Source: Mytilus californianus
Taxonomy: Eukaryota
Length of the DNA stretch: 64,000 nucleotides
NCBI RefSeq assembly: GCF_021869535.1
Contig: NW_026262593.1
Location: 14,694,001-14,758,000 of the forward strand
Direction: 5' to 3'
Shown here: in pieces, positions 8,701-58,643 of the stretch
Position numbering within the stretch: position 1 is the first letter of the stretch
Layout of the letters: each line of letters begins with the position of its first letter
Position numbers and translations under genes: made by a program
The notes under the pieces: model-generated
Database searches by the model: none
The model's input: only the letters and a program-made list of their open reading frames with translations
What the model was told of the DNA's origin: nothing

Positions 8701-11700
8701 AAAAAGCCCCGAAATGACAAATGTAAAACAATTCAAAAGAGAAAACTAACGGCTTGATTAATGTACAAAATAGAGAACGAAAAAGAAATATGATATATAG
8801 AAACAAACGACAACCACTGAATTACAGGCTCCTGACTTGGGACAGGCATATACAGAATGTGGCGGGGTTAAACTAGTTTAAAGACGCCAACCCTCCCCTA
8901 ACCTGGGACAGTGGTGTAACAGTACAATATAAGAACAAACTATAAAAATCAGTCGAAAATGGCTTAACTCATCAGATCGATACAAAGCAGAAATACATCC
9001 AACGAAAACACATCCCCACAAAAAAGTACAGATATGAAAGTACTCGCAGTTACTGACGGCTAGTTCAAAGCCAATAACAACTAATTACAAAAAGCATGCA
9101 TCTCAGACTAAAATATCAATCAGTACACATCCAACACCCAATGTATTTAGTGTAAAGACGTCATTAACAGTCAGAGAAAAATATGACCTTGTGCAATGCC
9201 AAAATACAGCGATGAATGTGCATATGTATATAAAAATAATATTTAGTTTGATTTTGATTTACTGATAACAAAATCAATATTAATACCAATAAAAACAATA
9301 TTCAAAGATCTAATTACAGTGTTGAATTGGTAACCTTTTAGAATAAGTTTATTTAAAGGATCGATAAGTTAACCCGGATTGTTTATGAATTTCCGGGCTC
9401 GGTAAACAACATCACTGTAAAAATCAGGATGTGCTATCCCGTTTGAAATAAGTTTTCTGTCTGCAGATACATCTAAACTTCCAAACCAAATCTTTTGTAT
9501 CTTTGGAAGAATTTAGTAAATGTTTTAAGTAATTTGTGGTAACGAATTCCCTGACTTAATAATTTACAACCTAGTTTCTAAAATTGTCCGTTTATATATC
9601 TATAAATTATTAAGAAACTAAGGTTTCAACTCCCTCATGCAAAGTTGGCCTTAGATTGATTTGGCTATTATTTTCAAGTCCTTTTGGTCAAAGTACTCTT
9701 CAACTGTTATGTATCTTTCTTAAACATCTTTGACTTTCAAATATTCGGCTTCGAGCGTTCCTGATGAAGGTAAATCCAGAAAAAGCGCTTCGGACGCATG
9801 AAATTATTAAGTGTTGTTTTCACTGTTTGTCTTGCAAATAGGTTTCATATTTATCCCATGGCGTTGTCAGTTTCTCTCGACTAATGAGTTTTGAATGTAC
9901 CCTTAGCATCCACCGCTCCTATATTCATATTGATAGTTTTTTGCTTCACGTCCATTGGCAAATATTTGATACAAATTCAGGATGATAATAAATGAAAAGG
10001 AACTTACCTATTGACCAAGGAAATATTGTTCCTAGAATCACTATTGAACAAATAAGAAACATACAATAATATAACTAATTTTATTAATAATAATCGTATT
10101 ATATGTTATTAATTGTTTTCTTTTTCTTTTAAATCTTATAACATTTTAGACAATTTAACAACAAAGTTACTCCTCCCATGCAAAATAAAATAACCAAACT
10201 TGCATTTTATAAGCCATTTGCATCCCTTCTACATGAGATTGATATCTAATGCTTATTTGTAAGGTTTAAACTCTTGATCATTTTGATTCGAAGACAAAAT
10301 GATGCCTGGGATAAACGTAGGATTATATAGTCATTTGTTCATGTACGCATTGGCGAATGTGTGTATCACGATAACGAAAGAAGCTTGTTACGATGTGAAT
10401 AATTTTTCCTATATATTTTGTTGAAGCAAATAATTATTAATAATAATTGTTAATTGCTTCACGAACAGTGGCAAATATTTCAATCAAATTCAAGATGATA
10501 ATTAATGACAAGTTACTTACCTATTGATCAAGGAAATACCGTTGTTAGGATTACTATTAAATAAAAAAAAACTATTTACAACAAAGTCTCAAAGGGAAAA
10601 AATGAAAATAAAATTGCATGTTTTATGCCATTTTCATCTGTTTGATTCAAATATCCAATGCTGATATTTAAAGTTCCAAATCGTCAGAAAACAAATTACC
10701 CTAAATTCACTGGCATACACCAAACTATTCTGTATAACAGTAGTCTATTGAGTAACTGCTTGAAAATACTCATATGTGTATGACGTTCAAAAAAGTTTAT
10801 TTTTGAAGGTAAATATTTTAATTTTTTACAACATTTTTTTAATATTTACTTAAAAAGAAAAATCAGATTAAATTATGATATACATCATGAGTTGAGAAAA
10901 AACAACACTATAGCAAAAACAAAAGACGAACATTCCATCTCCTATCCACAAAACATTACATAGAGAATTAAAAAAAAAGCAATCCGAGACCCAGAATAAA
11001 ATAGGGTTGATTGTAAAAAGTGCCTGCTTGGCTTGTTGCACCAATCGTGTTGCTTATCTCGACCTAAAGAGCATGGCGTTAGAGAATATAGGGGAAAATG
11101 TGTTTAATTCAAGGACAACCACAAAAATGTAATCTAGTATTCTAGAGATCAATATACTTGTTTTAATATTATACAGGTGCCTACAACCTCATATGTTAAA
11201 CCTTGGTCAACGGTATAACAAAAGGTAAACAAAATATCTATATACTAAACAATCTGTACCTGAAATGCATTGAACTCTAATATATATTTCAGTTTTAGAA
11301 TATATAGGACTTTTCGTACAATCATTTATTGTACTCTCAAAAGGCTGCATTCTGTATTTTCTTTATAACAAATTAATTTACGGTTACGTTTGCATTGTGA
11401 CTTGTATTTTTTTCATATTATTTCTACTAAATCCTTAAGAATGCAATAATGATTGATTTTATGACACCTTCAATTATTTCAGCTTTGAGTTAGAAAGTCA
11501 TGCTGTTCATTTTATGATTTGTATTGTTCATCATACTTTTATTTTCCCCCTTATCTCTTACAGTTTCCATTGAACATTTCCTAACGCAGACAATTCATTA
11601 CTTATGTACAATTGGTTCAATTATTGTGATCAATTATGTTATACTTATCAATCATATTTTATTCATACTGAATTTATATGAGAATCTCATTTTTCTATCC

Positions 11701-14700: not shown

Positions 14701-15489
14701 CAAACTAGTTTAACCCCGCCACATTCTGTATGTGCCTGTCCCAAGACAGGAGCCTGTAATTCAGTGATTGACGTTTGTTGCTGTGCATCATATTTGTTTT
14801 TCGTTAATTATTTTTTACATGAATTAGGCCATTAGTTTTCTCGTTTGAATTGTTTTACAATTGTCATTTCGGGGCCTTTTATAGCTGACAATGCGGTATG
14901 GATTTTGGTCATTGTTAAAGGCCGTACGGTGACCCATAGTTGTTGATTTCTTGTTAATTTGGTCTCTTGTTAAAAGTTGTCTCATTGGCAATCATACCAC
15001 ATCTTCTTATTTTTTTATTTATACGAGTATGAAGTGGACTTATGTTAAAGGCAAAACATTTATGACTGCAACTTGAAACTGAGACTATTTCTGAAATGGA
15101 CAAAACTCTTGGTTTACGCCAGGCCACCTAGATGAATTCTTGCAATATAGAGAAAGCAAAGCATTCACACTTCGATTTAACATTCCCATGTTTATCGGTC
15201 GAAAATGCGAATTAGTACAGTCATCCCGTTTTGCCAAACAAACTTCTAAATTTGTCAAGACTTATAATGCTAGACAGAAGAAGAATAATAAGAATTTGAA
15301 GTAGAGAACTGGCTAAGCTTTTTCAGAACTTTACTGTTGGATGCATCAATTTATATTTTGTAAAAGGTAGACATTGCTTGAGTGAATAAAAAAATCGAAA
15401 ACAAAATAATCCCATACAGTCTAAGGTTGAAGGGAAAAGGAAAATAGTTTTGTTCACGTCTGCAATTGAATTACGCCCTTGGTTTTTAC

Positions 15490-15877: not shown

Positions 15878-18800
15878 TGTTACTTAACAAAATAATGTTT
15901 TTTGTGTTATTGGGATGTAAAAGCCCTTCATACTAAAAATGTGTACAACCGGTCATAAAATTACAAAATAAAACGGAAAACAGTTAAAGCAGAAATTACA
16001 AGCTAAATCAAGTTTGGTATGGTCACATTGTCATGGAGAGACTGCGATCATGACTGCTGCGTTAATTAAAATAAACTGAATACTTCAATTTAGAATATCA
16101 CGTGATTTATGTCTGCCAATGTAAATCATATATTGGAATCACCATACAACATCTACACGTATGTCATGTTATTATAACTCTTAACTATTGTGTGCATATG
16201 TAAATATGTCGGCAATATATGCAGCAAATTAAAAACAAACTTTGGTAAAATAAAAGAAAAGAAATGTTTTTCATACATTTACACCATATTAAAAAAGATA
16301 TTATCATAAGTGAAAAACAATCTTACCATTTGCTACTAACCCATGTCCAGCAGAACAAAGAGAGTTTGCCTGACAAAAGCCTCTTGCTGGTTCTCTTTGG
16401 TCTTTAGTAAAATGATACCCTTGAATACATCCGCAAACAGTGTTAGATGTTGCTGTGCATGGAGACAGGATAGCTGATACCCAATGATTCATGACAACCT
16501 CTTCACACCTTGTGCAACTAGTACAGTAGTTGGCTCTGTTTGAGGTAACCTGATAGGCGCCATCCGGGCATGGAACGCACTGCATTTGGGTATTTGAATT
16601 CTGTAAGTTAACAACAACAGATAAGCTAACAAAACAGATAGTGTACACAATCTTTAAATGAGTTAAAACCAAAATAGAAACAGGTGCTAATGTCAACTTT
16701 TAAACACCTTCCATTTTCAGACCGAAAGAGAAGTAATTAATATAATAAAAGCCAGTTAACCTAGTATTTAATTTACTCATAAAATTTAATACAGCTGACA
16801 ATTGTTGGATTTAGTGAATTTCAATATAAAGATGTATGAAAATGCTTCAAAGATGTTTCAATAAATTTGAATAAGAAAAAACATGACAATGTCATTCATC
16901 CAAAAACATTGACGTTGATGACAATTTTGGTGTAGTATACTAATTTTTTGTAAGTTTTTATTTTTCGTTATTAGATTCTGCATTAATTAAGTATGTACTC
17001 TTCTGAAGAGGAAAATTTCCTGAATTAAACTTTAAAAATGGTTATGACATTTCTATAGACAGATATTTCCTTGTGTGTTTTCAACAACAAAAAACTGTAG
17101 GTAGGTGTTCAATTAAGGAAGCTACGGTCATCTGAAATTTGACCATTTACAGAATATGGAAAAGGTGACAAATCCCAAAAATACCAGCAAAATATGCATT
17201 TTTCTCAAGTAATCAGGTCTACAACTCATTTCCTGTGCTTTATCTCTTTAAATAAACATATCATAGATACCAGGATTGAAAATATGTGCGCCAGACGCGC
17301 GTTTGGCCGAATAAAAAAAAATTAAAAAGGCCAAATAAAGTACGAAGTTGAAGAGCATTGAGGACCCAACATTCCTAAAACTTTTACCAAATACAGCTTC
17401 GGTAATCTATTCCTGAGGTAGAAAAGCCTTAGTATTTCGAAAATTCAAAGTTTTGTTAACAGTTAATATATAATTATGACCATATCAATGATAAGTCATG
17501 TCAACACAGAAGTGCTGACTACTGGGCTGGTGATACCCTCGAAGAGAAAAACTCCACCAGCAGTGGCATCGACCTAGTGGTTGTAAACAAACTCATCATA
17601 GATACCAGGATTGGAATTTTGTACGCCAGACGCGCGTTGCGTCTACAAAAGACTCATTGCCTCATGGACAAAACAAATATAAATAATACACCATATGAAT
17701 GCATATTAATTTTTTTTCTTCATCATATTGGATATGAAAAATTCACAAATTTATCACGAAAACTCCCAAACTCCAGATTTTACACTAAAAATATCACACT
17801 TTCCGAATTAAACTCTTTTGAAGACTTAATATATAGTTGGACCCACATAACATCAACATTTTAAGCCAAACAAAAAATGGAAAATTAATGTTTTGTCTGA
17901 AAAAGAATATATAGTTTGATATATGATAGAACTTGTAGGTTTGGTTTAGCCCTTTCCATCTACTTGTGTTTTAAATTTGCTGATTTGAGCCATTAACAAA
18001 TCGTAGGACGTCATATGTTCATGATCTCTACACTATTTTTCAATTTCGTTTCTTTATGATAAAAAGCGTAAAACTACCAAACGTCTGTATGGAATTAAAT
18101 GGTCGCAAACCCCTAGTCACCTTGCAAAATAACAATCCCTCTGTAAGGGAGATAATCAAAGGTTTCTACAATATCATTAGTGGCCATAACTCGGACATAA
18201 GAAGTTTTATAGATGTAATGTCTTCGACATTACATTGTATTACTTCATATGTGATCTGTATATAGGGTCAAGGCTTATGACTTTCCGCATTATTCCTTTC
18301 TATGTAAACATGTTGGAAATTGGCCGTAAACAGTAAAACGTTAGAGTAAATGGTGAAAAATATTTGCCTGCTTTTTTATTATGTTTTGATGAAAAAGCTG
18401 CCCTGGCACTCTTGGTTATTTGTTACTCAGTCTCTTTCTATTGAACAATGTTGAATAGTTGATAATACTTTCATAAAAATCAAAGCCAAAAACTTTAATT
18501 GCCCTGATTGGTTTTAAATTGCACCATGTTATAGGCCATGCTCTACTGAAAAAAAAATGTATGATTTCAAGGAAATTTTGTCAACAGAAGTCACTTTTGG
18601 AACTTGAAATGAACTTTGTTCCCATTGATATCAAATATCTTCCTTAATCCAACAGTACACGGTTTCAAGATATGTTTTAATGAACAATGGTTTTATTGAC
18701 AAAAATTACCTTCATCTAGCTTTGCTTTTTATCTTCTTGTCTTGGAGTCCAATGATAAAGACACTAGGTTCTTACGACTAAACGTTTACGAATTTTCCCC

Positions 18801-25800: not shown

Positions 25801-26008
25801 AAGCAGTATGGTAAACCAATAGCATTGAAAGGTTATAAAAGTTTGTGAGCTAAGCTTGTCTTAGTACAGAAAATAAAAAAAAAAAAGTTAAAACAGTAAT
25901 GTTAATGATTTTTTTTTGAGTTAATCAATATACTTTCCTAGAGGAAGAAATTTCGAACACAAAAACCAGTCAAATACCATCTTCACATATTGCGGACAAT
26001 CTTTAAAT

Positions 26009-26781
26009 AGTATTATGACATTAATTAATTGGTTTTATTGAATAACTTACCGGTGTTTATCATTTTTCGAGTATGTGTGTGTATTTGTGTGTGTGTGTTT
26101 GTGTGTATCGATTCAAGGTTTTGTCCATATAAATATGAGCAAGGAATTATCCAATATGATCCTCTTTTTGTGTGATTGTATTCCTATTTTTTTTTTAAGT
26201 TTCTGCTTCTCGGTACAACACTAGTAATGATAACAACAATAATTTATACAATATTTAATGTCCCCGTCGATTCAGACAGACATGGGTCGGGGAGCCATCC
26301 ACATGTTGTCTTTACAATATATATAAAGAATAAAATTATCTATAACTATTTTATACATCGAGATAAAGAAATAGAGAGTCGCATATCACTCAACAGTATC
26401 TCTAACCTCACGAAAGGGCCAACAGTATGCTATCTTTCGTGCAGGGGTGTAAACTGTCGAGACTTGAAGTTAGTCTTTCCGGGATAGTTAACTCTCTCAA
26501 ATATCAGATAAATCGCGAGCTTTAATCCAAGAGTTGAATTTCTTTAGCTATTGTAACCATTTCACATAATATTGCGTGTTGGGTCCTTTGCCTTTCGAAT
26601 TCGTTTTGAGGATGTTTTCAACTTTCCACACATCGTCTTCCCGAACATCTACTTTCTGCACTTCTGATTGGTAGAAGGTTCCTGAAATTTCGTCGTCTTG
26701 AAAGTCAATAAGTCGATAAACTGGAAGCCCACCACGTAATATTCTTTGAGATATTCTAAATATCTCTCCGCTCCATTTCTC
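26009..26781 (-). repeat. Left inverted arm of the Polinton, including an inverted copy of the integrase 3' end (26497-26781)
   Basis: Reverse complement of 30000-30780 with roughly 20 substitutions and ~6 indels by eye. Minus frame EKWSGEIFRIS...VWKVENILK...YVKWLQ*LKKFNSWIKARDLSDI*. ORFs 26176-26487 and 30442-30630 are the same non-coding arm read twice. Confidence 0.9.
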
Positions 26782-26919
26782 TGAATATCAATCAGATCGT
26801 TATTCATATCAGTATCAAGACTGGGAACCCATACGGTCGGTAGACTGAGGAGTCATTTTCCCGACCCGTGGACGAGTACCAGTGGCGATAGACTCCTTTG
26901 ATATGAATAATAACTGGTT

Positions 26920-27526
26920 GTCTTTATCTTAACAGACCCATCTACGTGGGATTAACTATACTCGATTTGTCAAAGACACTTATGTACGATTTTCAATTTA
27001 CATTGTAATTATTTGAAGGATAAATATGGGCCTAGAGTAACACCCTTGTTCACGGACACAGACTCACAATGCTACAACATCAACACTGATGATATATATC
27101 AAGATATGATGGAGGACAAAAACTTGTTTGATACGTCAGAATATGACCCTGAACATCAGCTTTATAGCACATTCAATAAAACGGGTTAGGAAAGATGAAG
27201 GACGAAACACATGGTATTCCCATACAGGAATTCGTTGGTCTGAAGTCAAAGATGTACTCGTTAATATATGAGGAGAATAAAACACTCTGCGAAAAGAAGA
27301 CAGCCAAGGGTATAAAGAAGAGTGTGATCAAACAAGACACGAACATTATAAACAATGTTTACTCAATAAAGAGATCCACAGGTCTACCATGACACAGATC
27401 CGTTCATACGATCACAAGTTGTATAATATATCCATCAACAAACTGGGCTTATCCCCTTATGATGACAAAAGATACTTACTAGATGATGGGATACAAATTT
27501 TGGCCTATGGACATTGGAGAATATAA
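26920..27526 (+). pseudogene. Protein-primed family B DNA polymerase, C-terminal fragment, frameshifted
   Basis: LYLNRPIYVGLTILDLSKTLMYDF, LFTDTDS, GKMKDE, EFVGLKSKMYS, KTAKGIKK, LSPYDDKRYLLDDG, LAYGHWRI*. At least three frame breaks. Confidence 0.9.
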
Positions 27527-27601
27527 TAAGGATGTATGTAAATATTTTAATCACTCTATGTTTAACATTTGAAGGAAGAGGACGTGTTTAAAGAGCTCTC
27601 T

Positions 27602-29116
27602 ATGATGAATACAACATGTTCAGAATGTGGTATAGAATTTTCGAGAAAAGATGCTATGTTGATACATTATAGGAAAAAACACAAAATCAATCAACCATAT
27701 CCACCGAGCAGTCATGCGTATCCACCACCACCACCGCCACCACCACCACCACCACCACCGCCGCCACATGTGGTACTACATCATCCATTCACTATGATGT
27801 TGGCTGGACCTACTGGTTCAGGTAAGACGTTTTGGATGAAAACATTATTGGAGCGAGCACGGACTATGATAAAACCTTCACCTGATAGGATTATATGGTG
27901 TTATAAACGGTGGCAGCCATTATTTAGTGAAATAAAGCAGACCATTAAAAACATTTTGTTTATTCAAGGTTTACCTGAAAATTTGAATGATGACTCATTC
28001 ATTGACTCTAGATATCCAAGTTTAATCATCCTAGACGATTTAATGAGAGACACCACCAATAGCAAGGATGTTTGTGAATTCTTTGTGGAGGGCAGCCATC
28101 ACAGGAACCTAAATGTAGCTTGTAATATGCAAAATGCGTTCCCGAGGGGAAAGGAGAGTCAAACCATGAGCATCAATAGCCAGTATATAGTCCTATTCAA
28201 AAACCCACGTGATCAAGTTGGGCCATCCATATTTGCTAGACAGATGTATCCTAATTACCCAAAGAAATTCATGAATAAGTACAAAGAGGGGACACAACGA
28301 CCATATGGGAGTCTATTCATTGATTTAAAACAGAATACACCGGAAGACGACAGACTAAAACTTAATATATTCGAAAACAAGAACATGATTGGTGGAGGTG
28401 TTTCAGAAGAGTATATTAGCAGAAAAGAACTAGAACCACCTCAGTTTGAAGAAACATTTCAAAGTGAGCAGACGTATTTACCAGACGAGAGAGAAATCAT
28501 GCCTTCATGTGATGATTGCGGTGTAGTCTTTGAAAGCGTTCCTGATTTAGCTAGACACATGAATAAGTGGTGTCCGGAAAATAATGATTTAAAAAGAAAA
28601 AGGGGAAACGAGGATGACGACATTCCCTTAAAGAAGTCTCGTGTAGACGAAATTTATATAGAAGATGGAGAAGATATGGCTTTTATAAAATTAGCTGAAC
28701 TTGCCAGAGAGGCAAATGAAGATATTTGGGAAGAAAAAGTTGATAAATACATGGATGGTGATATGAATGAAGACCACGCAATAAGTAAGGCCGATCACAA
28801 ACTAAAAGATGAGGATATGGATCAGTTTTTGTCGAGATATAGCAGTTTGGGTGAGTATGTACTACAGTTACAAAATGGTAAATTGCATGGCAAAATCATG
28901 AAAATGATTACAGAATTAGTTAACGATGGCAAGGACTACGATAAAGCCATTAAAGTAGCCATCAGGAAATATAAACCTTTGTTGGAAAGCTATCTAGATG
29001 AAGCTATTGATAACGAAACAATCGATGATGGTTCTGAAAGTGAAGATAGCATTGATGATGATGAAGAGGAAGAGGAGGATGAGGAGGATGTAGACGATGA
29101 AAGCTCAACTATATAA
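27602..29116 (+). CDS. C2H2 zinc finger + poly-Pro + A32/FtsK-like packaging ATPase + second Zn finger + acidic tail (open ORF, 504 aa from ATG)
   Basis: Walker A GPTGSGKT, Walker B LIILDD, GSHHRN, VLFKNPRD. Zn fingers CSECGIEFSRKDAMLIHYRKKH and CDDCGVVFESVPDLARHMNKWC. The first ATG is at 27602 (the track starts at an upstream TTG). Confidence 0.85.
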   Translation: MMNTTCSECGIEFSRKDAMLIHYRKKHKINQPYPPSSHAYPPPPPPPPPPPPPPPHVVLHHPFTMMLAGPTGSGKTFWMKTLLERARTMIKPSPDRIIWCYKRWQPLFSEIKQTIKNILFIQGLPENLNDDSFIDSRYPSLIILDDLMRDTTNSKDVCEFFVEGSHHRNLNVACNMQNAFPRGKESQTMSINSQYIVLFKNPRDQVGPSIFARQMYPNYPKKFMNKYKEGTQRPYGSLFIDLKQNTPEDDRLKLNIFENKNMIGGGVSEEYISRKELEPPQFEETFQSEQTYLPDEREIMPSCDDCGVVFESVPDLARHMNKWCPENNDLKRKRGNEDDDIPLKKSRVDEIYIEDGEDMAFIKLAELAREANEDIWEEKVDKYMDGDMNEDHAISKADHKLKDEDMDQFLSRYSSLGEYVLQLQNGKLHGKIMKMITELVNDGKDYDKAIKVAIRKYKPLLESYLDEAIDNETIDDGSESEDSIDDDEEEEEDEEDVDDESSTI

Positions 29117-29172
29117 ATATGAGAACGTTTTACTCTGTATGTCATTCTATAATCATCATTCCATATGTAAAG

Positions 29173-30306
29173 ATGGCCTTTTGGGAAAAGTACTTGAGAA
29201 ATATTTATTACAATCCAGCTAACCCAGCGAGTTTTGCAGTCCTGATAAACTTTACAGATTTGTTCGAACAGATGGAAAGTTCGTTCTCAGTAAATATAGA
29301 ATACGAAAATGGCTACAACGACAGGAACCATACAGTTTACAAAGACCCTTAAAAAGGTCGTTTAAGCGGAACAGAGTTATCGTTATTGGGATAGACGACC
29401 AATGGGATGTTGATTTAATGGACATGTCTAAATTTTCTAAATTTAACAGTGGATTTAATTTCATATTGGTGGTGATTGACATATTCTCCAAATATGTATG
29501 GCTAAGACCTCTAAAGAATAATAAAGGTGAATCCGTGGCAAATGCTTTGAAACATGTTTTATCACAAGGAAGATCACCAAACAGAATAAGAACAGACAAA
29601 GGACAAGAATTCAGATAAAGATTAGTAGAATCTCTCCTAAAACAGAGAAATATTCAACATTTTCTTGCACAAAATACGGAAATCAAAGCTAATTACGTTG
29701 AAAGAGTTATCAAGACTATCAAATAAAAAATCTTGAGATTTATCACCAGTAAGCAGTCATATGACTATGTGGATAACTTACAGAATTTTGCTAACAGCTA
29801 CAACAAGACCTTCCATAGAACGATTGGCATGGCACCAGATAAAGTCACCCTATCTAAAGAGACAAACCTGTGATGGAAAATGTATTGGCCAAAAAGATTA
29901 CAACCTAAGACAGAGAAAGTACGAAAACCTTTCCGTTTCAAAATCGGTGATAAAGTTCGGATAACATACATAAAAAATCCTCTTACCAGGAAATACGATG
30001 AGAAATGGAGCGGAGAGATATTTAGAATATCTCAAAGAATATTACGTGGTGGGCTTCCAGTTTATCGACTTATTGACTTTCAAGACGAAGAAATTTCAGG
30101 AACCTTTTACCAATCAGAAGTGCAGATAGTTATCAAAGGTACCAGGATTATAAGTAAGTGGATGTTCGCGAAGACGATGTGTGGAAAGTTGAAAACATCC
30201 TCAAAACGAAAGGCAAAGGACCCAACATGCAATATTATGTGAATGGTTACACTGGCCAAAGAAATTCTACTCTTGGATTAAAGCTCGCGATTTATCTGAT
30301 ATTTGA
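29173..30306 (+). pseudogene. Polinton retroviral-like (rve) integrase with C-terminal chromodomain, disabled
   Basis: IYYNPANPASF, DQWDVDLMDM, VIDIFSKY, RTDKGQEF, YVER and the chromodomain VKWLHWPKKFYSWI. Frameshift ~29239, stops at 29616, 29724 and 29871, a 29-nt insertion at 30125-30153 and a 1-nt deletion ~30242. Confidence 0.9.
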
Positions 30307-33300
30307 GAGAGTTAACTATCCCGGAAAGACTAACTTCAAGTCTCGACAGTTTACACCCCTGCACGAAAGATAGCATACTGTTGGCCCTTTCGTGAGGTTA
30401 GAGATACTGTTGAGTGATATGCGACTCTCTATTTTTTTATCTCAATGTATAAAATAGTTATAGATAATTTTATTCTTTATATATATTGTAAAGACAACAT
30501 GTGGATGGCTCCCCGACCCATGTCTGTCTGAATCGATGGGGACATTAAATATTGTATAAATTATTGTTGTTATCATTACTAGTGTGGTACCGAGAAGCAG
30601 AAACTTAAAAAAAAATAGGAATACAATCACACAAAAAGAGGATCATATTGGATAATTCCTTGCTCGTATTTATATGGACAAAACCTTGAATCGATACACA
30701 CAAATACACACACATACTCTAAAAATGATAAACACCGGTACATTATATAATAAAACCAATTAATTAATGTCATAATAACTTAAAATGACGTCATAGAAAT
30801 AAGCCTCACATCGGGAGGCTACCTCTCAGGAGGCTACCTTTTCCCCATAGGGTTAACATTAGCAAAAAGTCGCCAGAACCGCCACTTCCCCCACTACTAT
30901 TTAAAGTCGAAAGCTAAACTTCAGAAAGCGTCAAATAATCAAAACAATATAGGAGATTTTACCAAAATATAGTACGTCAACATCAGAAGAAAAGCTCTCT
31001 TTTTCCTATTAGTATAAATATTTGATGCTTTAAAAATAAGTATCAGAATTCGCCAAACAAAACTAAAGTTTTGAGATAAGATGAAATGACAATATTTCAA
31101 TTAACTGAACTGAATGTGACTGGTATATTGTATGACATAGTTTGTGCATTAAAAAGACACATATACAAGTACAATTAAGTGGATTCATGACCTTTGAAAT
31201 CGTTACAGTTTGTGCTCTATGACATAACGTAATATACTTATTTTTCTGTTTTTTTTATCATTACAATATATAATTGAAATAATATCATGTCAGGTTAACA
31301 CTGTAACATTGTCGGTTAAATGTTTCCTATTTTGTATAATTACAATTATTTCAAAATATACTGTTTAATAGCTTACACAATTATGTCTGTTTGGTGAATT
31401 TCATTCTCACAAGAGTGAAATGTACTGCTTTTAGTTTTTTGCCTTTAACCTTTTCCCGCTTCCATAGCTTTGTTACTAATGCCGCTATCACTGCGTCGTC
31501 GTCGAACAGCTGTTGTTCGAATACCCTTTGATACTTTGGTGTAGGCAAGATTTAAAACATCCTCATTTCTCTTTTTTTCTGTTCATAACCTATGCATTCT
31601 GCCAAAGAAAGGTTCATGATGTTCTGGTTAGTCTTTCTGGTGTGATATATTTGGCTTAAGAAACTTTGGTCTCAAATGCACCTGAAAAAGTGTTTTTTTT
31701 TTTTTACAGTTTCACGTGTCATCCTACTAGTAACTAATAAACATATAGAACGTTTACATTTTCCCTTTTTTTTCTAGATGCAAAATCATCCTGGTTAATC
31801 AAATATATATAAATGAGATTCTTGTTACCGTGAACTCCTTCCTACAGCACACCATGCAAACTAGAGTCAGGAGCCTGTAATTCAGTGGTTGTCGTTTGTT
31901 TCTGTGTATCATATTTGTTTTTCGTTCATTATTTTGTACATAAATGAGGCCGTTAGTTTACTCGTTTGAATTGTTTTACATTTGTCATTTCGGGGCCTTT
32001 TATAGCTGACTATGCGGTATGGGTTTTCCTCATTGTTGAAGGTCGTACGGTGACCTATAGTTGTTAATTTCTGTGTCATTTGGTCTCTTGTGGAGAGTTG
32101 TCTCTTTGGCAATTATACCACATCTTGTTATTTTTATAGATGTTGTTTGCCATGTTAAACCCCCCGTTACATTTTTGATTTTTTTTAAAAACTCAAATTT
32201 AGAAATGCACTTGTCTATTTTCGATCGGCATCAAAGTAATACCATTTGTTAATGATTGAAAATATAAAAATAAGGCGATGTGTTATGATTGCCAATGAGG
32301 CAACTGTCCGACAAAGACCACATTACGCAGATGTAAGGTACGGCTTTTGACATGAAGCATAGCAAGCTATAAAAGGCCAACATGATAAATGTTTAAAATT
32401 CAAACGAGTAACTAACAAGAAACTAACGGCCTGAATTATGTACAAAATAACAAACGAAATTCTAAAACGATAAACAGTATGTATGGTTTTAATTGGTTCA
32501 TTTGGTACTTATAAAAAAAGCAGATGATAATAAAAAACAGACAGACAGCCTTTAAGTCCCAAAATATTTCCCCCTTGATATAAGAATAAGGAGACATGGC
32601 ATGGTTGCCAATGAGACAACTATTTACCAGAGTTCAAAGAACGAAGACATAAGCAATTAAAGGTCAATGTACGATCTTCAAGAATGAGAAAAACCCAAAT
32701 TGCATAAAAAAACGCCCCGACATAAAAAAAATGTGAAACTATTCAAACGAAAAAACTAACGAACCTAATACATAACAATACAATTTACTAAATAAAAAAA
32801 AACAAATTTGACAGACATGAATCTACAACCACCACTAAATAACAGGCTCCAGACTTACGGACAGGCACATAAAGATTGTCGCGGGATTAAAATTATTTAT
32901 GAGCGCTCAATTCTCCACTAAACTGGGACAGTAGTGTAACAGCATAACATAAAAACAAACTAAAAACATTCCTTTCCAGTCGGTCTGAACAACTTTCTAA
33001 TTCGACATGAAAGTGAAACAAACACAGGGAAAGTTTGTCATACCACTTTATTCTGAAACTTATCTACGTCAATCTCAAAACACATATGTTTCCGTTATTA
33101 CAATGTCAAATTAAAATGCGAGTGTGACAGTCCTACGAGGTCATCGAACTTCCTAAATGGTCGTTACAAATTTCAACATTTTTGCTTTTTTATTTTGGAT
33201 TGAACCAATAAAATTTCCGTTAGTGACCACTGAGAAATTCTTGTTCATTTGAATGCCCTTAAATCATTTAAAGAAGTCGCAATTGCAATAGCGCTAATTC

Positions 33301-38200: not shown

Positions 38201-40370
38201 TACATAATAACTTAGTTAGGAGGAAGAATGACTGAAATCGACACTACATAAATATTTTGTTCGGTCACCATCACGAATGGCGGGTGAAGCACGCACAGCA
38301 GGATACACTCACCCTGTCGATGCACCCGGTACCGTTTCTTTTATAGTTCCTAAGTCTTTGTTTGTTACATTGATTTGTCTTCTCAAATCGATGCATGAGA
38401 TTTGAACATCAGTAAACTACTGGTCTCTTCTTATATATCATTACTTTATCATGGTTTCTTTGTATTTTAATGGTATATACAAGGGTCTGGATAGGGGGTC
38501 CTTCAATTCTTAACTCTTTAATTGTTTATAGCTCTATTGCTCTATTCTTCATAAATTTTGTCCATTATCATCTATTCTTTATATTTTAGCGCTCAATTAT
38601 TCCCTATTCCTTATATTATTGGCCTTTTTTCTCTATTCTTTATTTTTTAGCCATTTATTTTGCACTTTTCCCCATTATTCTCTATTCTGGAAACCCTATC
38701 TAGACCCTCATATACATCATGTCTTTTCCTATATATAAATACTTAATCATGGTTTCTTTGTATATTAAAGGTATATACATTATTTCTCTTCATTTTACAG
38801 CTAGCTCAAAGGTAATGTCGAGCTATCATGGTTTAGGAGAGGACACGCTCAATGTTGACACGTACTATATTCCATTTGATGCAGGACATTTGACCATGTC
38901 ATTGACTACGAAAGGATGCGCACCAGTATCCGAAGGTTTCCAAACAAACGATGGCATCTTCAATATTGGTTTCATGGGACTAACTAGTGGCATAACAGAC
39001 CAATCTGTGTTCGAATTGCCTTCCCCTTGTAAGGAGGAGTCGATGAAAAAGAGAGTATGTATTAACATCAGCATCCTTCAAAGGATCGAATTTTATTTAA
39101 TCAATCCCTCCTAAAGTTCAACATATGCCAGATCATTACACTGTCCCATTTCTCAATAATATATAACACAACATTTAAATTAAGTGGAAAATATAGATAT
39201 CGTTTAGAGAGCCATTTTGTACAGAATTATAAGAGACTGTAACATTGAAACATTATAGAAAATTTGTTTATTATAAAACAAATATATAAGTACATTATTT
39301 ACAGTATAAAACACTTCTACGTCTTTTTGAAATTAGATAACAAAATGTCATGCTTTGACACAGCTACCAATCATATTTACTAAACATTCTTGACATAGTA
39401 ATATTAACAACTGAAGTACTAACAATATATTCTGTAATGTTAAACAAATATTCTACGTTGCACGCAGAAAATGTTTTCCTTACATGATAATTTCATATTT
39501 ATTTTATACTTGTGTTTTCTACTCATTTTATCTGCCCATATGAAAACCTTTCTGTTTAACCGATTATAACTCATATTAAAACGGAACCAAAGTCGAATTA
39601 AACATTGTCATTGTTTTTTAAAATAAATATCCACCCAATACCCCCAGCAACTGCAGTATTTGGAGTATATTAACCGACACTGGAAAAAATCTGCTAGCTC
39701 TATAATTATGTATAGCATTAATAAAAGAAAGATTTTATAACCCCAATACCAGTACCATATTCAGCATGTGGGAACACCAAACTTTCAGATAGTTTTGAAA
39801 AGACTGTATGAGGAACATAATAATAACATGAAAAAACCCACAGATACAAATGTAATACGATAAACCTAACAAGTAAATATTTGGAGATAGCTGATTTCTG
39901 TTAGATTTATACAATATAATGGAACAAGAAGAACCAATTACACATGCGCAACATGGAAAGCAGGATATTTTTACCCTTCCGGAGCACCTTGTGTTGGTCA
40001 GGTCTTGTCTTGTAGTGTTTTGTGGTCTGTTTATCTTTTGGTCGTTGTTCGTGTTTGGCTTTGACGTTGTCAGTTCATTTTCGACTTGTTTGATTATCCG
40101 CCTTTCTTGTAATCTTGTGCTGTCCTTATGTAACATATAATGTGTTTCTTTAGACTTACGCACCCAAAGCGATTGGCAGCCATTGCAAATAAAAGCTGAA
40201 TGCTGATACTATAAGTTTTTCTTCTTTTTGAAAGTTATATCAAATGCATACTATTTAAAATCCAAAGGCATATGTATGTGTGTTGTATATACGTTGATAA
40301 TGATTCACCAGAACTGTCAGTTTATTTTCTTTTTCAGGAAATACGACAGTCGCCATTCGTTCCCATCTGA
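35290..40370 (+). CDS. EPDR: Ependymin-related protein, copy A (5 exons, 209 aa, secreted)
   Basis: Exons 35290-35427, 36775-36888, 37359-37449, 38801-39054 and 40338-40370, all AG/GT, 630 nt in total. Signal peptide, CCLPQQLEG, GCAPVSE, FELPSPC. AATAAA at 40408. Confidence 0.9.
37900..38400 (+). mobile_element. Decayed Penelope-like RT fragment in EPDR-A intron 3
   Basis: IYPSELEIKDT..SASYLDL..NFPFLSNI then ISQLIRY in another frame. A shorter 3' remnant lies at ~49340-49530 in copy B. Confidence 0.7.
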
Positions 40371-43630: not shown

Positions 43631-46600
43631 ATGGAGATATACGTTCTTGTATTGAGTCTTGCTACACTTGTTGGCCAAGCGTATTCGTGCTGTGTGCCAC
43701 AACAGTTAGAGGGAACGGTTGGGATGTCAATTGGTCTGAACAATAATGGCAATCCTCTGGCTATTACGGTAAGTGTTTATTTCAAAATTTGAACTTTGGA
43801 ACTTACATATTTTATGTTAGAAGTCTGGATTTTTAAAAACGGGTCAACTTTATAAATATTTACACCAAGATGTCGTTCACTGAAATTGGATACCGTGCAC
43901 TTATCATGTTTTTAAATAACATATTGATCAAATCGCTGAAATAAAGACTTATTTGTAGATCTTTCTTTGCTGAACAATTTTGCTGTTTACAGTTTATCTC
44001 TATCTTTTTTAATATTTAAGATAATAACCAAAAAGTGCAAAATTCCTTAAAATTACCAATTCAGGGGCAGCAACCCAACAACAGGTTGTCTGATGCGTCT
44101 GAAAATTTCAGGGCAGATAGATCTTGACCTGATGAACATTTTAACCCATGTCAGATTTGCTCTAAATGCTTTAGTTTATGAGATACAAGTCAAAAACTGC
44201 ATTTGACCCCTATGTTCTATTTGTTAGCCATGGCGGCCATGTTTGTTGACGGATCAAAAATTCGGATATAAGTCATAAACTAGATTCCTAAAGGAACATT
44301 CATTTAAACTTTAGAAGTATTAGGCACAGTAGTTTCAAAGTAGAAGATTTTCAAATGTTAGCAAACATGAAGAACAAATTGTGTAAAATTGTCTTTAAAA
44401 GGCAATAACTCCTTAAGGGGTCAATTGACAATTAAGGTCATGTTAACTTTTTTGTAGATTTTACTTTGCTGAACATTATTGTTGTTTACAGTTTATCTAT
44501 ATCTATAATAATATTCAAGATAATAACAAAAAAACTGCATAGTTTCCTTAAAATTACTAATTTAGTGGCAGCAACCCACAAGAGGTTGTCTGATGCGTCT
44601 GAAAATTTCAGGGCAGATAGATCTTGACCTGATGAATATGGTCAGATTTGCTCTAAATGCTTTAGTTTATGAGATATAAGCCAAAAACTGCATTTGACCC
44701 CTATGTTCTATTTTCATCCATGGCGGCCATGTTTGTTGATGGATCAAAAATTCGGATATAATTCATAAATTAAGATTCCTAAAGGAACATTCATTTAAAG
44801 TTTAGAAGTATTAGGCACAGTAGTTTCAGAGAAGAAGATTTTTAAATGTTAGCAAACATGAAGAACAAATTGTGTAAAATTGTCTTTAAAGGGCAATAAC
44901 TTCATAAGGGGTCAATTGACAATTTTGGTCATGTTAACTTTTTTGTAGATCTTACTTTGCTTAACATTATTGCTGTTTACAGTTTATCTATATCTATAAT
45001 AATATTCAAGATAATAACAAAAAACTGCAGAATTTCCTTAAAATTACCAATTTAGTAGCAGCAACCCAAAAAGGGGTTGTCTGATGCCTCTGAAAATTTC
45101 AGGGCAGATAGATCTGACCTGATGAAATTTTTTTACCCATGTCAGATTTGCTCTAAAAGCTTAAGTTTTTGAGATATAAGCCAAAAACTGCATTTGACCC
45201 CTATGTTCTATTTTTAGCCATGGCGGCCATGTTTGTTGATCGATCAAAACTTCGGATAACTTTTAAAAACTAGATACCATAAGGAACATTCAGTTAACGT
45301 TTGAAGGTATTTGGCCCATTAGTTTCAGAGGAGAAGATTTTTGAAATAGTTTACGACGACAGAGACGACGACAGACGACGACGACAACGGACGACGGACG
45401 ACGACGGAAGCCAAGTGATGGCATAATCTCACATGGGGCCCTTCGGGCCTCGGTTAGCTAAATAAAGGGTTGAGATGAAAAACAATATCAGAAAGATAAC
45501 CATAACCTTGGACAAAATGCCGCCAAATAAAATAATATACACAGGTAAATAAAAATAATTTTGTTGTAAGATATACATGAAGTACGGAAATATTTTTTGT
45601 TTCTATTTGAAATTTAAAAAAATGCCGAATACAGATGTTGTAGATCTGATATTAACATATATTGTTAATTGCATATTTTTAAAGATTTGTGATTCGTTAA
45701 AACTTTATCACATGTGCATTTGTGTTTACTCAGTTTGCACGCCAATACTGTTATGTTTAGCTTTTCGTTGGTCAAAAACAGCATATTGCACAAGGCATAC
45801 TGCATGTTAAAGTCATATGAAACTTCAAATTAAAACAAAATGATGCATATAAATGTTGTTTTTTTTGGACTAAATGGCTAGTTTTTATTATAAAACTTTT
45901 GTACATATACTTTTTCTGAACAAAATTCTTTAATTTGTCCAAATTTAGAAGAAATTTACTTTTTTTAATTACTGGCTTCCCACACAATAATTCGCCGACA
46001 TGTTTCCCGTATGCAGTTTCCTCAGCGTGACCTTTCTCGTAAAAATCCGGTGATAGCAACACGAAAGGGGAAAACCAAATTAGCAGAGAGAGAGTCAGCA
46101 AGCGTAAACATCGCTCCCTCATCGAAATAAACTATTATATCTTATTGTACATGTTATACACGTGCTCACTTCAATATCCATGCTTGTATTAGTTATCCCA
46201 TAAGGACGCGGTGTGTTAGTGTAAGATCATCCCGATGGCCGGAGGCCAGAGGGTGATCTAACACTGACACACCAAGTCCGAATGGGATAACTATTTTACA
46301 TCCCAGCTGTTCTAGATTAGATAAAAAAACCATTTACGCTCCATAAAATCTAGTTTAGAACGCCACACAATCATTACTATATACTTTATATATTACTATA
46401 TTGTATATACCTTTATGAGCCCCGGACACAATGTTTAAATATGTTAAATTAACATTGATTTGCATCCACACGTGCTGGTGTAGGGGTATAACTTGTGTGT
46501 CTATATGCTAAAGGTCTTGAGTTCGATTCCCAGCATAGACACTGAAATTTTCAACATAAATTTTGATATTTAGTCTCTTCCGTATAAATATTTCTAAGTT

Positions 46601-49600
46601 TTAGTATAAATTTGACATTCCCGCCAAAATGTTACAGAACAAAGGAAAGCATGCAGAACAAAGAAACTCAAGCTAGGGTGATCACCACTGGTAGCACAAA
46701 GGAGCTGGGATGTAACTTTGTTGATTGTTTACAAAGGTGACAATCGGTAAACTTCGGCTTCAAAACACGACCATTAATTAGCTAACATATTTTCACAACA
46801 CTGACCGAGTGAAATATTTTTTTGACGATTATACGGTGTGGATGCGTAAAAAAATATAAATAAACAAAATCGTGCACAGAAGACTAAGTTTATGATATAT
46901 GCATGCATTGGTTCAAGAATTGGATTAACATTATTTTTCACCAGTCACTCGTTTCATATGACTTTAATTAATAAAATACATTCTAGAAATCCCCAATTTT
47001 ACATTGTTCTTGGAATAGTTGTTGATTAATAATATAACAATCATTGTAGCCTTTGGTTGAGGTCAATACGATGTTATATCGACCTCATACAAAGGCTATA
47101 ATTGTATAATTTCCTCGTATTATGGGTTTTCGTGCTATTACGATGGCTTTGTGACGTCATAATTTCCATTGAAAAAGCATGCATAGTACGAATTCATATG
47201 ACGTACGAAAAAATATGTTCTGACTATATATAAATTATTTATATCCTTTGTATTTTTAGGCTGTGTATGACAAATGGGCAATGGATACTGCTAGAGGAAA
47301 AGGTTACTTTTCTGGAACAGTCTACGTTGGGGGTCATGCAATTCACCAAGAAATTGTTCAGGATTTCAATATTGTAAGTCTAGGAGAACCTGATATTTTT
47401 GTATGCAGTTTTTTGCTTTTTTTAACATTTGGGTTCATTTAAAACACTTGTTGCGAATTTTGCAATTTACGAGTGGATTATCGGAGTAGTGGTCTTTTTA
47501 TTTAAATATTAAATTTATGGAAAATTTCAATTATAAATTCAACAAATCAGTGAACCATCGATCGATCACATATCAATTGTAAGATAATGAATCAATCATG
47601 AACAGAAGGTTATGAAAGGAAACAGCTATTCATAAATTTCGCGCGTTCGAAGTGCTTTTTTCTGGATTTTCCTTCTTAAGGAACCCTCAATCCTAAGCAT
47701 TTGGAAGCCTTGGTTGTACAAATATGTAGAAAAGTTCTGTGATGTATGTCCAAAGGGAACTTAAAAATGGAGTTGAATCTTAATTTATAAACTAAATACA
47801 TGGTCATTGCACTATCTCGGATAAGTTCTATAATGGTGGCCGATCGACTCTTTTTAAAAGAGAAATGCCCCTTGGAAATATTAAATTTATGGAAAATGGC
47901 CTCGTTAGCGCTCTCACTGGTACAATTCTTTCCAGGTTTTTATAAAACTTTTACTATAGGATAATATCAGCAATATTTCGGACAAGTTCTATAATGGTGG
48001 CCGATCGACTTTTTTAAAAAGAGTTATGCCCCTTGGAAATATTAAATTTATGGAAAATGGCCTCGTTAGAGCTCTCACGTGTACAATTCTTGCCAGATTT
48101 TTATGAAACTTATACTGTAGGTTAATATCAGCAATATCTCAAACAAGTTTTATCATGGTGGCCGATCGACTTTTTTAAAAGAGTTATGCCCTTGGAAATA
48201 TTAAAATTATGGAAAATGACCTCGTTAGCGCTCTCACGGGTACAATTCTTGCCAGATTTTTATAAAACTTATACTATAGGTTAATATCACCAATATCTCG
48301 GACACGTTCTCAAATGGTGACCGATTGACTTTTTTAAAAGAGATATGCCCCTTGGAAATATTAAATTTATGAAAAATGGCCTCGTTAGCGCTCTCACGGG
48401 TACAATTCTTGCCAGATTTTTATCAAACTTATACTATAGTTTAATATAAGCAATATCTCGGAAGAGTTTTTAATGGTGGACGATCGACTTTTTTTTAGTT
48501 ATGCCCCTTAAAAATATTAAATTTATGGAAAAATGGCCTAGTGAGCGCTACAAAACAGTGTTTTATTTAGTTATTGCTCTTGTACCTTGGATAGATAAAA
48601 TATGTGCAACGCGGGGGACATTGGAACTCTGTTCTTTTATCCATACATCTTGCCATGCCGATGTATCTGAGAGATATAATGATATGCCCAGTGATTGTCA
48701 TGCCGATGTATCTAAGAGATATAATGATATGCCCAGTGATTGTCAAAATGTTTAACTTATTAATTATGTTATGGACTCCGAACATGTAGCAAATAGTTCT
48801 CTGAAAAAGGTGCTTATATAAAAATAAGTAGATGTGGTATGAATGCAAATGAGACAACTATCCACCAAAGTTCAGATGAAGTGGAAGAAAGCAAATATAG
48901 GAAACCGTACAGTTTCCCAAAATGTCTTCTTTAACTCACAGTGATGTGTTAGTCCTTGTTTTGATTGAAAGGTCTCAACGTTTCTTCGAACTGAGAAACA
49001 GAAATTTGAGCTTTGTCTCGTTGTTTTTGGAATTGTTTACCAAAGAATAAGTAGAGAATTTGTGCTATAAACTGGTTCACCTAACAACATCCTTTCTCTT
49101 CCGTTTCAGCAAGTACAGTATGAAGCTGCTATGGGAAACTGCACCATAAAACCCTTCCCATTTGATTTTTCGACCGAAGGAGGAATGATTTGTTTGCCAT
49201 GTAAGTTCTTCATAACATGATTAACGAATCACTACATTTAGTAGTCACATCTACACTGTAACGATTTTGTTGATTTTCTTACCGTCGAAGAATTAAAGCA
49301 GTGTTACATGTAGGACTTTAGATAGAGTCGTCAAATCTGAAAACATATTGTGTCCGATTCTCGATTGGGACATTTTGACTAAGTGTGGATTCGCATGGAG
49401 GGTGAAGCATGCATAGCAGGATACACTTACCATGTCGATGCACCTGGTAACGTTTATTTTATAGATCATCAGTCTTTGTTTGTTACTTTGATTTGTCTTC
49501 TTTGAACATCGGTAAACTACTGGTGTCTTCTTATACATAATTAATTAATCATGGTATCTTTATATTTTAATGGTATATAAACAAGGGTCATAAATTGAAT

Positions 49601-51169
49601 TAAGCGGGTCCTTCAATTCTGAATTCTTTACTTTTTAGCTATTTTCCTCTATTCTACACAAATTTTGTGCGTTATTCTCTATTCTATATATGTTAGCACC
49701 GAAGTATTTCCTATTCCTTATATTATTGGCATGTTTTCTCTATTCTTTATATTCTACCCATTTATTTTGCACTTTTCCCCTTTATTCTGTATCAGGAAAC
49801 CCCATCTAGACCCGCATATACATCATGTCTCTTTCTATATATAAATACTTAATCATGATTTCTTTGTACATTAATGGTAACATACATTATATCTCTTCAT
49901 TTTACAGCTAGCTCAAAGGTAATGTCGAGCTATCATGGTTTAGGAGATGACACGCTCAAAGTTGACACGTACTATATTCCATTTGATGCAGGACATTTTA
50001 CCATGTCATTGACTACGAAAGGATGCGCACCAGTATCAGAAAGTTTCCAAATAAACGATGGCGTCTTCAATATTGGTTTCATGGGACTTACAAGTGGCAT
50101 AACAGACCCCTCCGTGTTCGAGTTGCCTTCCCCTTGTAAGGAGGGGTCGATGAGAAAGAGAGTATGTATAACACCAGCATCCTTCTAAGCATCCAATCTT
50201 ATTTAATAAATCCCTCATAAAGTTCAACATATACCAGATCATTAAACTTCATGTTAACAATTCAATTCAACTCAATACTTCATCTAAGTCTCATTTCTCA
50301 ATAATATATAATACAACATTACATCAAGTGGAACATATGGGTATCGTTCAGAGAACCATTTTGTACAGAATTATAAGAGACTGTAGCTCTATAATTATGT
50401 ATGGCATTAATAAAAGAAAGATTTTATAACCCGATACCAGTACCATATTCAACCAGTGAGAACACCAAACTTTTCAGATAGTTTTGAAAAGACTGTATGA
50501 GGAACATAATAATAACATGAAAAAAAAAACCCACAGATACAAATATAATACGATAAATCTATCAAGTAAATATTTGGAGATAGCTGATTTCTGTTAGATT
50601 TATACAATATAATGGAACAAGTAGAACCAATTACACATGTGCAACATGGAAAGCAGGATATGTTTACCCTTCCGGAGCACCTTGTGTTGGTCAGGTCTTG
50701 TCTTGTTGTGTTTTGTGGTCTGTTTATCTTTTGATCGTTTTTCGTGTTTGGCTTTGACGTTGTCAGTTCATTTTCGACTTGTAAGTTTGATTATCCGCCT
50801 TTCTTTTACAAAGGCAATATAAAAAAAAAATGCATTAAAACCATGTTCTTACTAGTATTTGTCATTTACTCGCAGGTAGATGTTAAACAAAAGTACAAGT
50901 TTAAATGTAATCTTGTGCTGTCCTTATGTAACATATAATGTGTTTCTTTAGACTTACGCACCCAAAGCGATTGGCAGCCATTGCAAATAAAAGCTGAATG
51001 CTGATACTATAAGTTTTCTTCTTTTTGAAAGTTATATCAAATGCATACTATTTAAAAATCAAAGGCATACATATATGTGTGTTGTATATACGTTGATAAT
51101 GATTCACCAGAACTGTCAGTTTATTTTCTTTTTCAGGAAATACGACAGTCGCCATTCGTTCCCATCTGA
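43631..51169 (+). CDS. EPDR: Ependymin-related protein, copy B (5 exons, 209 aa)
   Basis: Exons 43631-43768, 47260-47373, 49110-49200, 49908-50161 and 51137-51169. Exon lengths are identical to copy A, the frame is intact, and there are ~23 aa differences. AATAAA at 51298. Confidence 0.9.
43951..45462 (-). mobile_element. Helentron-type non-autonomous element with ~490-500-bp tandem units
   Basis: End GACGACGAC...GCCAAGTGATGGCATAATCTCACATGGGGCCCTTCGGGCCTCGGTTAGCTAAA. Units start at ~43952, 44451 and 44942. Absent from the paralogous intron of copy A. Confidence 0.7.
46190..47105. mobile_element. Element with a long hairpin at each end, inserted in EPDR-B intron 1
   Basis: Hairpin ~46193-46290 centred on TGGCC-GGA-GGCCA and hairpin ~47047-47098 (TAGCCTTTG..GAGGTC/GACCTC..CAAAGGCTA). 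An internal tRNA-like GAGTTCGATTCCC motif lies at ~46520. Not in copy A. Confidence 0.5.
47810..48550. repeat. ~160-bp tandem array (about 4.5 copies)
   Basis: GGCCGATCGACT anchors at ~47838, 47999, 48160, 48319 and 48478. Confidence 0.85.
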
Positions 51170-53359: not shown

Positions 53360-53471
53360 TAGTGATCGAAACGGTATTTTATATATACTAAAGCAACAGT
53401 TGTTTAACAACGCTATTTAAATCTCTAAATTGATTAAAAAGACAAACCAATGTATAATTAATAAAAAAAAA

Positions 53472-55920: not shown

Positions 55921-55971
55921 TTTTTTTTTTTTTTTTTTTTTTTGTGGGGGGGGGGGGGGGGGGGGGGGGGC
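55921..55971. repeat. Homopolymer run T~25 G~26
   Basis: Seen directly. A similar poly-C + (CA)n run lies at ~58598-58650 and (TA)n at ~34003-34042. Confidence 0.9.

Positions 55972-58596: not shown

Positions 58597-58643
<47 letters not shown>

Follow-up and report, generated by a model that had tools for sequence, protein, structure and literature searches.

The 64,000-nt stretch of the Mytilus californianus assembly GCF_021869535.1 analysed here (contig NW_026262593.1, positions 14,694,001 to 14,758,000, forward strand; hereafter the window) contains, at 26009–30780, a dead, non-autonomous Polinton (Maverick) remnant of 4.8 kb that occurs as a single copy in the window. The remnant is composed of two inverted arms, a 140-nt stretch, the end of a gene for a family B DNA polymerase of the protein-primed type (pPolB), an open gene for a packaging ATPase with zinc fingers (ZnF-ATPase), and a broken, full-length integrase gene. 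The initial annotation had recognized a Polinton derivative with both of its ends, and the arms, the AG...CT termini on both sides, the pPolB fragment, the A32-like ATPase and the retrovirus-like (rve) integrase bear this out. Similar truncated elements have already been described.

The left arm, a terminal inverted repeat (TIR), occupies positions 26009–26781 of the plus strand (773 nt, beginning with AG), and the right arm positions 30000–30780 of the same strand (781 nt, ending with CT). Both lengths lie within the range of about 50–1500 bp that characterizes the TIRs of Polintons. Counted from position 26011 inward, 18 of the 750 columns in which the arms align hold a substitution (2.4%; 95% confidence interval 1.4–3.8), close to the value of about 3% first estimated by eye. 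There are also indels of 14, 1, 1, 6 and 29 nt, plus a 1-nt difference beside the terminus. Homology between the arms stops abruptly at 26781/30000, with no bases in common beyond the edge and no microhomology at it. This inner edge coincides with codon ~277 of a 368-aa integrase. The left arm carries 282 integrase coding nucleotides (285 including the stop codon) as a minus-strand 3′ fragment at 26497–26781, which spans residues ~277–368, includes the chromodomain, and contains one stop as well as an additional in-frame block of 6 nt. The earlier description of arms of ~775 bp that run 285 bp into the integrase and end abruptly mid-gene is thus accurate.

Both ends of the element begin with AGT, and neither is an exact (AGT)2 or (AG)3 hexamer, motifs that were defined for vertebrates. 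The plus-strand hexamers flanking the element, TTAAAT at 26003–26008 and TAAAAT at 30781–30786, are candidate target-site duplications (TSDs) that agree at five of six positions and consist of A and T only. A match at this level is found in 0.9% of random 6-mer pairs from the window, and a random 6-mer matches the left hexamer 1.7% of the time. Because these chance rates apply per register, and because 16 combinations of register and length around the termini match with no more than one mismatch in an A/T-rich context, the TSD appears plausible and is suggestive, not firm. The initial annotation had claimed AG...CT termini and a near-perfect 6-bp TSD; the termini are both present, while the duplication is better regarded as a candidate. 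No second copy of any part of the element is found elsewhere in the window, nor is there an empty site, that is, a homologous copy of the adjoining flanks without the element. The other copies with the same junction at 26781 that had been envisaged are likewise absent from the 64 kb.

The pPolB fragment (26922–27526, plus strand) comprises the C-terminal fifth of the polymerase, with the motif C and KxY region only, and has three frame changes, near 26995, 27183 and 27335. Its nearest Mytilus edulis proteins are P0242–P0245, and homology begins at 26922, which corresponds to residue 875 of 1075 in P0242; the left arm had been described as joining the middle of pPolB, and the join lies instead in its last fifth. 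In these relatives, motif patterns place motifs A, B, C and KxY of family B polymerases at 655, 817, 916 and 980, and the relatives resemble DNA_pol_B_2-bearing clusters at 0.96–0.98. DNA_pol_B_2 was not called when Pfam was run directly on them, and a sequence search of the PDB with pPolB returned nothing useful. A protein-primed family B polymerase is thus represented in the element by a fragment only. The pPolB of the family (P0242–P0244) also has an endonuclease VII (HNH-type) domain, in a part of the protein that is lost in the window copy; the domain fits the homing-endonuclease insertions noted in a portion of PMC11161782.

Downstream of pPolB, the plus-strand ZnF-ATPase open reading frame (ORF) at 27602–29116 is open over 504 aa and encodes a C2H2 zinc finger, a poly-Pro segment, an A32-like packaging ATPase, a second zinc finger and an acidic tail. 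It matches Pox_A32 (E = 6.8e-05), as expected of an A32/FtsK-like packaging ATPase; a search at E ≤ 1e-30 gave 521 relatives, and the ORF is collinear with many relatives. In the M. edulis gene model P0247, too, pPolB is followed by the ZnF-ATPase. The integrase gene (29173–30303, plus strand) is full-length and encodes an rve domain (PF00665) followed by a C-terminal chromodomain (Chromo). With X placed at its three interior stops, the product is 93% identical to the 368-aa M. edulis protein P0002, an identity that by itself puts the host within Mytilus or close to it. The retrovirus-like integrase is nonetheless broken in this copy, by a frame change near 29190–29240, stops at 29616, 29724 and 29871, and frame changes near 30131–30160 and 30241. 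Neither the open ZnF-ATPase ORF nor the retention of the whole integrase gene had been mentioned in the initial annotation.

The gene set of an autonomous Polinton, with major and minor capsid proteins, a protease and a complete pPolB, is not present in the element. As first noted, capsid and protease genes are missing: the interior is accounted for by pPolB, the ATPase and the integrase, and a scan of 24 further ORFs, each 100 aa or longer, gave no capsid or protease Pfam match. Judging from the family architecture, the capsid and protease genes of the parent probably lay on the left.

Between the left arm and pPolB lies a stretch of 140 nt (26782–26921), which had been passed over as a short filler. 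Its G+C content is 44% (53% in the middle) compared with 33% in the flanks, its fold has a z of −2.55, and it contains a 12-bp internal inverted repeat (26800–26811/26899–26910) of a size reached in 2 of 2000 shuffles and in 12 of 913 real windows. Comparison with the element and the window gave no match beyond chance, and translation in six frames gave no Pfam (0/6) or PHROGs (0/6) match. Several sources were considered and rejected. As a piece of pPolB, integrase or ATPase, the stretch has no significant match among 247 proteins and 150 further ones; the best match among the 247 (E about 8e-4, against a 144-nt subject) is scattered over different frames. As a host repeat, it shares a 12-mer with three repeat copies that does not extend, and its best host-repeat score of 29 is reached by 5 of 20 shuffles. 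As a locally templated insertion, it is not enriched in eight of nine tests: local coverage is 28 nt against 28.6 in shuffles, with 253 of 500 shuffles reaching 28, and for the element as a whole the figure at k = 9 was 37 of 500. A hammerhead-like reading made by eye was dropped, and Rfam gave no match at E ≤ 1 within the element or at the gathering score within the window.

The 140 nt bear directly on the origin proposed in the initial annotation, in which the remnant is a copy-back defective genome. A classical copy-back genome has a single break and rejoin junction without third-party sequence, and here 140 nt stand between the two joined genes, neither of which appears to supply them; they are the main problem for simple copy-back. 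The most economical reading is that they represent the parent's own sequence just inside its 773-bp left TIR.

Because the element contains no Ns and its arms differ by large indels, misassembly of the locus appears unlikely. An artefact of fold-back chimeric reads or collapsed repeats would not be without parallel, as Polinton loci are repetitive and the relevant part of PMC8547959 describes frame breaks in related elements that proved to be assembly errors. It is nevertheless extremely improbable here, given 18 substitutions and indels of up to 29 nt between the arms, unique flanks, and frame breaks outside long homopolymers (the longest run was 2–4 nt at all five of the breaks checked).

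The element has accumulated ten frame breaks: three in the pPolB fragment, four in the interior of the integrase and three where the arms are coding, with no break common to both arms. Break density is similar in the arms (3 in 552 coding nt) and the interior (7 in 1433 nt; p = 1.0), and the divergence of the arms is similar in their outer (10/474, 2.1%) and inner (8/276, 2.9%) portions (p = 0.62), all of these timing comparisons resting on small counts. Since break density and divergence are uniform across arms and interior, the arms are as old as the decay: they were identical at about the time it began, which fits their formation at or before integration. Uniform decay also argues against a conversion at a late date, and against a decayed satellite that circulated for long. 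It does not tell an ordinary TIR and a copy-back arm apart, as arms identical at birth over their whole length, which these appear to have been, are equally typical of both.

These counts also bear on the possibility that the arms were made by repair in place. A full copy with short TIRs would have integrated and suffered an early break or deletion on the left, which was repaired by synthesis from its own right end, with the arm growing into the integrase, capture of filler and retention of the TSD. Deleted DNA transposons generally can arise by gap repair that leaves filler, and such an event would explain the TSD, the termini, the mid-gene edge and the filler together without a free copy-back genome; the 6-, 14- and 29-nt indels in the arms show that the locus does carry repair scars. 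The inner part of the arms should, however, be less diverged than the outer, which is not seen, so that the event would have to be early, and the 140 nt are not enriched for locally templated pieces. Repair in place is accordingly regarded as quite improbable.

Alternatively, the arms could be the right ends of two different family members, brought together in a recombinant of co-replicating genomes or by a nested inverted insertion followed by deletion. The 2.4% divergence between the arms is of the same order as differences within the family (97–98% amino-acid identity among P0002, P0134 and P0148). All three arm breaks are nonetheless private and match the interior decay rate, as for one copy ageing in place, and the matching flanks would demand an extra coincidence, which leaves this origin very unlikely.

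None of the ten frame breaks falls in the ZnF-ATPase ORF (p = 0.0035, post hoc). Selection on this ORF is not supported, as changes at conserved sites (2.7–8%) are as frequent as in the integrase (5–6%), and its openness is as likely to be luck as selection. The initial annotation had also invoked a helper that integrated the element in trans. This is unneeded, given a complete integrase gene with an upstream TATA-like motif: the element's own integrase could have served, because the gene was whole and apparently unbroken at the time. Replication and packaging alone would have needed a helper, the former on account of the missing part of pPolB. The suggestion that the element was a satellite or parasite of a Polinton finds no support in a single, decayed copy in the window.

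Each arm carries, 15–33 nt inside its inner edge in the left copy (26748–26766) and near the edge in the right (30015–30033), a hairpin with an 8-bp stem. It is the only perfect hairpin with a stem of at least 8 bp in the element, compared, post hoc, with 0.3 per kb across the window. Its position would suit a template switch there at some time. The mechanism of template switching put forward in the initial annotation may be correct for how the arm edge formed, because any TIR that ends inside a gene must once have been extended.

An inward-facing TATA-like motif is present in the left arm (26128–26135, plus strand), with a right-arm counterpart at 30674 on the minus strand. The identical TATA-like 13-mer occurs three times only in the element, upstream of the integrase gene (29111–29123) and facing inward in each arm (26127–26139 and 30663–30675). 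If active, the arm motifs could yield antisense integrase RNA without the read-through initially envisaged. A folded non-coding block follows the integrase stop codon (30305–30440, plus strand; z −3.2), with a left-arm copy at about 26363–26498. This block has no Rfam match and is conserved in a more distant family whose integrase is ~75% identical.

The integrase end matches 134 short proteins. Among the best 120 of these, none has a foreign N-terminus of at least 10 residues joined at residue 277, a comparison made insensitive by an in-frame stop three codons upstream of the junction. Short proteins whose N-termini are foreign appear for the most part to be artefacts of frame shifts. Other relatives contain deletion-type junctions: P0223 joins pPolB to integrase residue 301, P0158 and P0305 have internal gaps, and in P0180, P0176, P0187 and P0189 the zinc-finger/poly-Pro start of the ATPase gene is joined to integrase residue ~289. 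The last four are clusters with 32 member sequences in all, and are candidates for an amplified non-autonomous Polinton family in another host, or for one allele sampled repeatedly. Deletion-type chimeras are thus recurrent among the relatives, and some of these chimeras may be gene-model artefacts or repeated samples of one allele. In P0204, one of 247 proteins tested, the end of the integrase continues directly into the non-coding part of the arm in reverse complement; the junction may stem from folding back, from a circle or a tandem arrangement, or from a chimeric assembly. P0251 was rejected as a second copy of the pPolB junction, as it is a gene model starting at a native Met five residues upstream. 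A scan of bacterial and archaeal genomes yielded three distant loci at 28–30% identity from 71 pattern matches.

The origin favoured here, tentatively and with somewhat less than even confidence, is one large deletion from a parent whose ~775-bp TIRs already covered the last 92 codons of the integrase; the weights given to this and the other origins are judgements and were not computed. Earlier in the history of the family, the TIR would have crept into the terminal integrase gene when a panhandle was repaired or a template switched, and the hairpin beside the edge may have helped. The 140-nt stretch would be parental sequence just inside the left TIR, which a single deletion, before or after integration, joined to codon ~875 of pPolB with removal of the left module and most of pPolB. 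The copy would then have decayed without further spread. Under this origin a single junction (26921/26922) would suffice and the 140 nt would be explained, and deletion is favoured over copy-back because fewer events are needed, both copy-back and repair in place calling for a second switch and a donor. The length of the arms within published TIR ranges, the recurrence of deletion-type chimeras among the relatives, and the uniform divergence and break density across arms and interior are all in keeping with a deletion. Full-length polintons with gene-containing TIRs of ~2 kb have also been published, in butterflies, and because of them coding sequence in an arm is not diagnostic of copy-back.

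Several observations weigh against a deletion of this kind. The long parental TIR is an assumption, and the literature searched shows no Polinton TIR that ends inside the integrase. For a deletion to end within 140 nt of the inner TIR edge would be coincidental, unless the base of a panhandle breaks easily. Between the inward TATA-like motif at 26128 and any left-hand gene there would be ~650 nt containing several ATGs, an arrangement better suited to a shorter parental TIR. A repair event confined to this copy would also be in keeping with the hairpin beside the edge and with the 12-bp inverted repeat.

Such an event could have been copy-back or panhandle repair in a free genome, in which the left end was regenerated from the right end as far as integrase codon 277 before integration. 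As modified to accommodate the present results, this proposal has the left part lost during protein-primed strand-displacement replication, the 140 nt acquired from a third place by a second switch, and integration by the element's own or a helper integrase. A panhandle model of Polinton replication was reportedly put forward by Kapitonov and Jurka in 2006. Arms as old as the decay with no frame break in common, the plausible TSD, and a mid-gene edge 15 nt from the element's only 8-bp hairpin (an association noted post hoc) all speak for regeneration of this type, as does the fold-back-like junction of P0204, one case in 247 proteins that may itself be an assembly chimera. There is also a precedent among endogenous mavirus-like elements (EMALEs), in which 3 of 33 complete elements are truncated yet flanked by TIRs that, in the authors' words, “must have regenerated”, the passages concerned neither naming a mechanism nor stating whether the TIRs reach into genes (PMC8547959). 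On the other side stand the two switches and the unexplained donor that the 140 nt require, the lack of microhomology at the arm edge and of a second copy in the window, and, as a weak test, the lack of proteins joined at residue 277 among the best 120. The element resembles an end-regenerated derivative in outline, but lacks the single junction that marks a classical copy-back genome. Copy-back in a free genome is possible, though unlikely. Deletion from a parent with long TIRs remains preferred.

Understood as a deleted Polinton, the locus is an ordinary relic, since most vertebrate Maverick loci are degraded, and truncated, TIR-flanked relatives have been published. If the parental TIR was instead short, the arm would record a terminal template switch in a protein-primed, virus-like element of animals, which would support the panhandle model of replication and explain the “regenerated” TIRs of virophages. 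In a wider scheme, considered doubtful, animal Polintons exist as free, panhandle-forming genomes that give rise to copy-back-like derivatives, which are integrated and preserved. The present locus would be a fossil of one such derivative that kept the integrase as well as a packaging ATPase unusually free of breaks, and certain derivatives, such as the group of a related family in which a zinc finger is joined to integrase residue 289, would amplify as satellites. Were this true, it would provide sequence-level evidence for a replication mode that has never been directly observed and for TIR boundaries that creep into genes.

Elsewhere in the window, ependymin-domain exons at 38704–39111, 49859–50185 and 63261–63659 lie within duplicated blocks of ~10 kb and constitute a tandem cluster of ependymin-related genes, and a TNFR cysteine-rich domain exon is found on the minus strand at 16307–16699. 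A dispersed repeat of ~270 bp is abundant in both orientations (2392–2665, 3115–3355, 8565–8837, 14744–15017, 31865–32138, 51670–51946 and others) and includes an inverted pair at 8558–8889/14692–15023. Tandem arrays are located at 1189–2055 (190-nt period), 43947–45347 (491 nt), 47809–48549 (161 nt) and 53466–53923 (49 nt), and pure G and C runs at 55946–55970 and 58598–58629. A 110-bp palindrome without spacer (56814–57033) is 94% complementary; by eye, its arm resembles the head of a short interspersed element derived from a transfer RNA, with A- and B-box-like words, and ARAGORN and Rfam found nothing in it.

The element is most closely comparable to the Polintons/Mavericks of molluscs (Polintoviricetes; “adintoviruses”), with which it shares TIRs, AG...CT ends, a candidate TSD of ~6 bp, pPolB, an A32-like ATPase and an rve integrase with chromodomain, the last a feature of Polinton integrases noted in the part of PMC8502044 that concerns them. 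It differs from them in its length of 4.8 kb instead of 13–25 kb, the lack of capsid and protease genes, a pPolB reduced to its last fifth, a broken integrase, and arms that end within the integrase gene. In intact vertebrate Mavericks, the TIRs are reported to measure 46–1447 bp and the TSDs 6 bp, and of all Maverick loci in vertebrates 96% are said to be degraded (PMC8097293, in the sections on these features); a published TIR from C. elegans, in the account available, measures 744 bp. The EMALEs of Cafeteria belong to a related virus group and, in the sections of PMC8547959 that treat them, include truncated elements of 5.5–15.6 kb that keep their TIRs, one with a one-mismatch TSD; they differ in being virophages of protists and not animal Polintons. 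In the full-length polintons of butterflies, the ~2-kb TIRs contain whole hexon and adenain genes, and mobile polintons that have lost polB and carry transposable-element cargo are reported in the same source, as far as the sections drawn on here describe them (bioRxiv 10.1101/2025.02.07.637071); the present arm, in contrast, holds only part of the integrase gene. Fragmented elements that keep TIRs and TSDs, and that possibly moved after gene loss, are described in parts of bioRxiv 10.64898/2026.07.28.741278, which also presents a panhandle replication model for Polintons in a figure legend. No copy-back Polinton was described in the literature searched, a search whose coverage excluded most subscription papers. 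Other systems in which one end is copied onto the other offer a likeness, among them inverted terminal repeat repair in adenovirus and the palindromic mini-replicons of phi29, and the kalilo plasmid of Neurospora is said to have a deletion derivative. Like the copy-back defective genomes of negative-strand RNA viruses, in the accounts drawn on here, the remnant has long complementary arms that enclose a terminal segment it has retained; it would also resemble them if one of its ends was indeed copied from the other, and in a replication that would depend on helper proteins. Those genomes differ in having a direct break and rejoin junction and a sequenced parent, whereas the Mytilus element has a third piece of 140 nt at the corresponding place.

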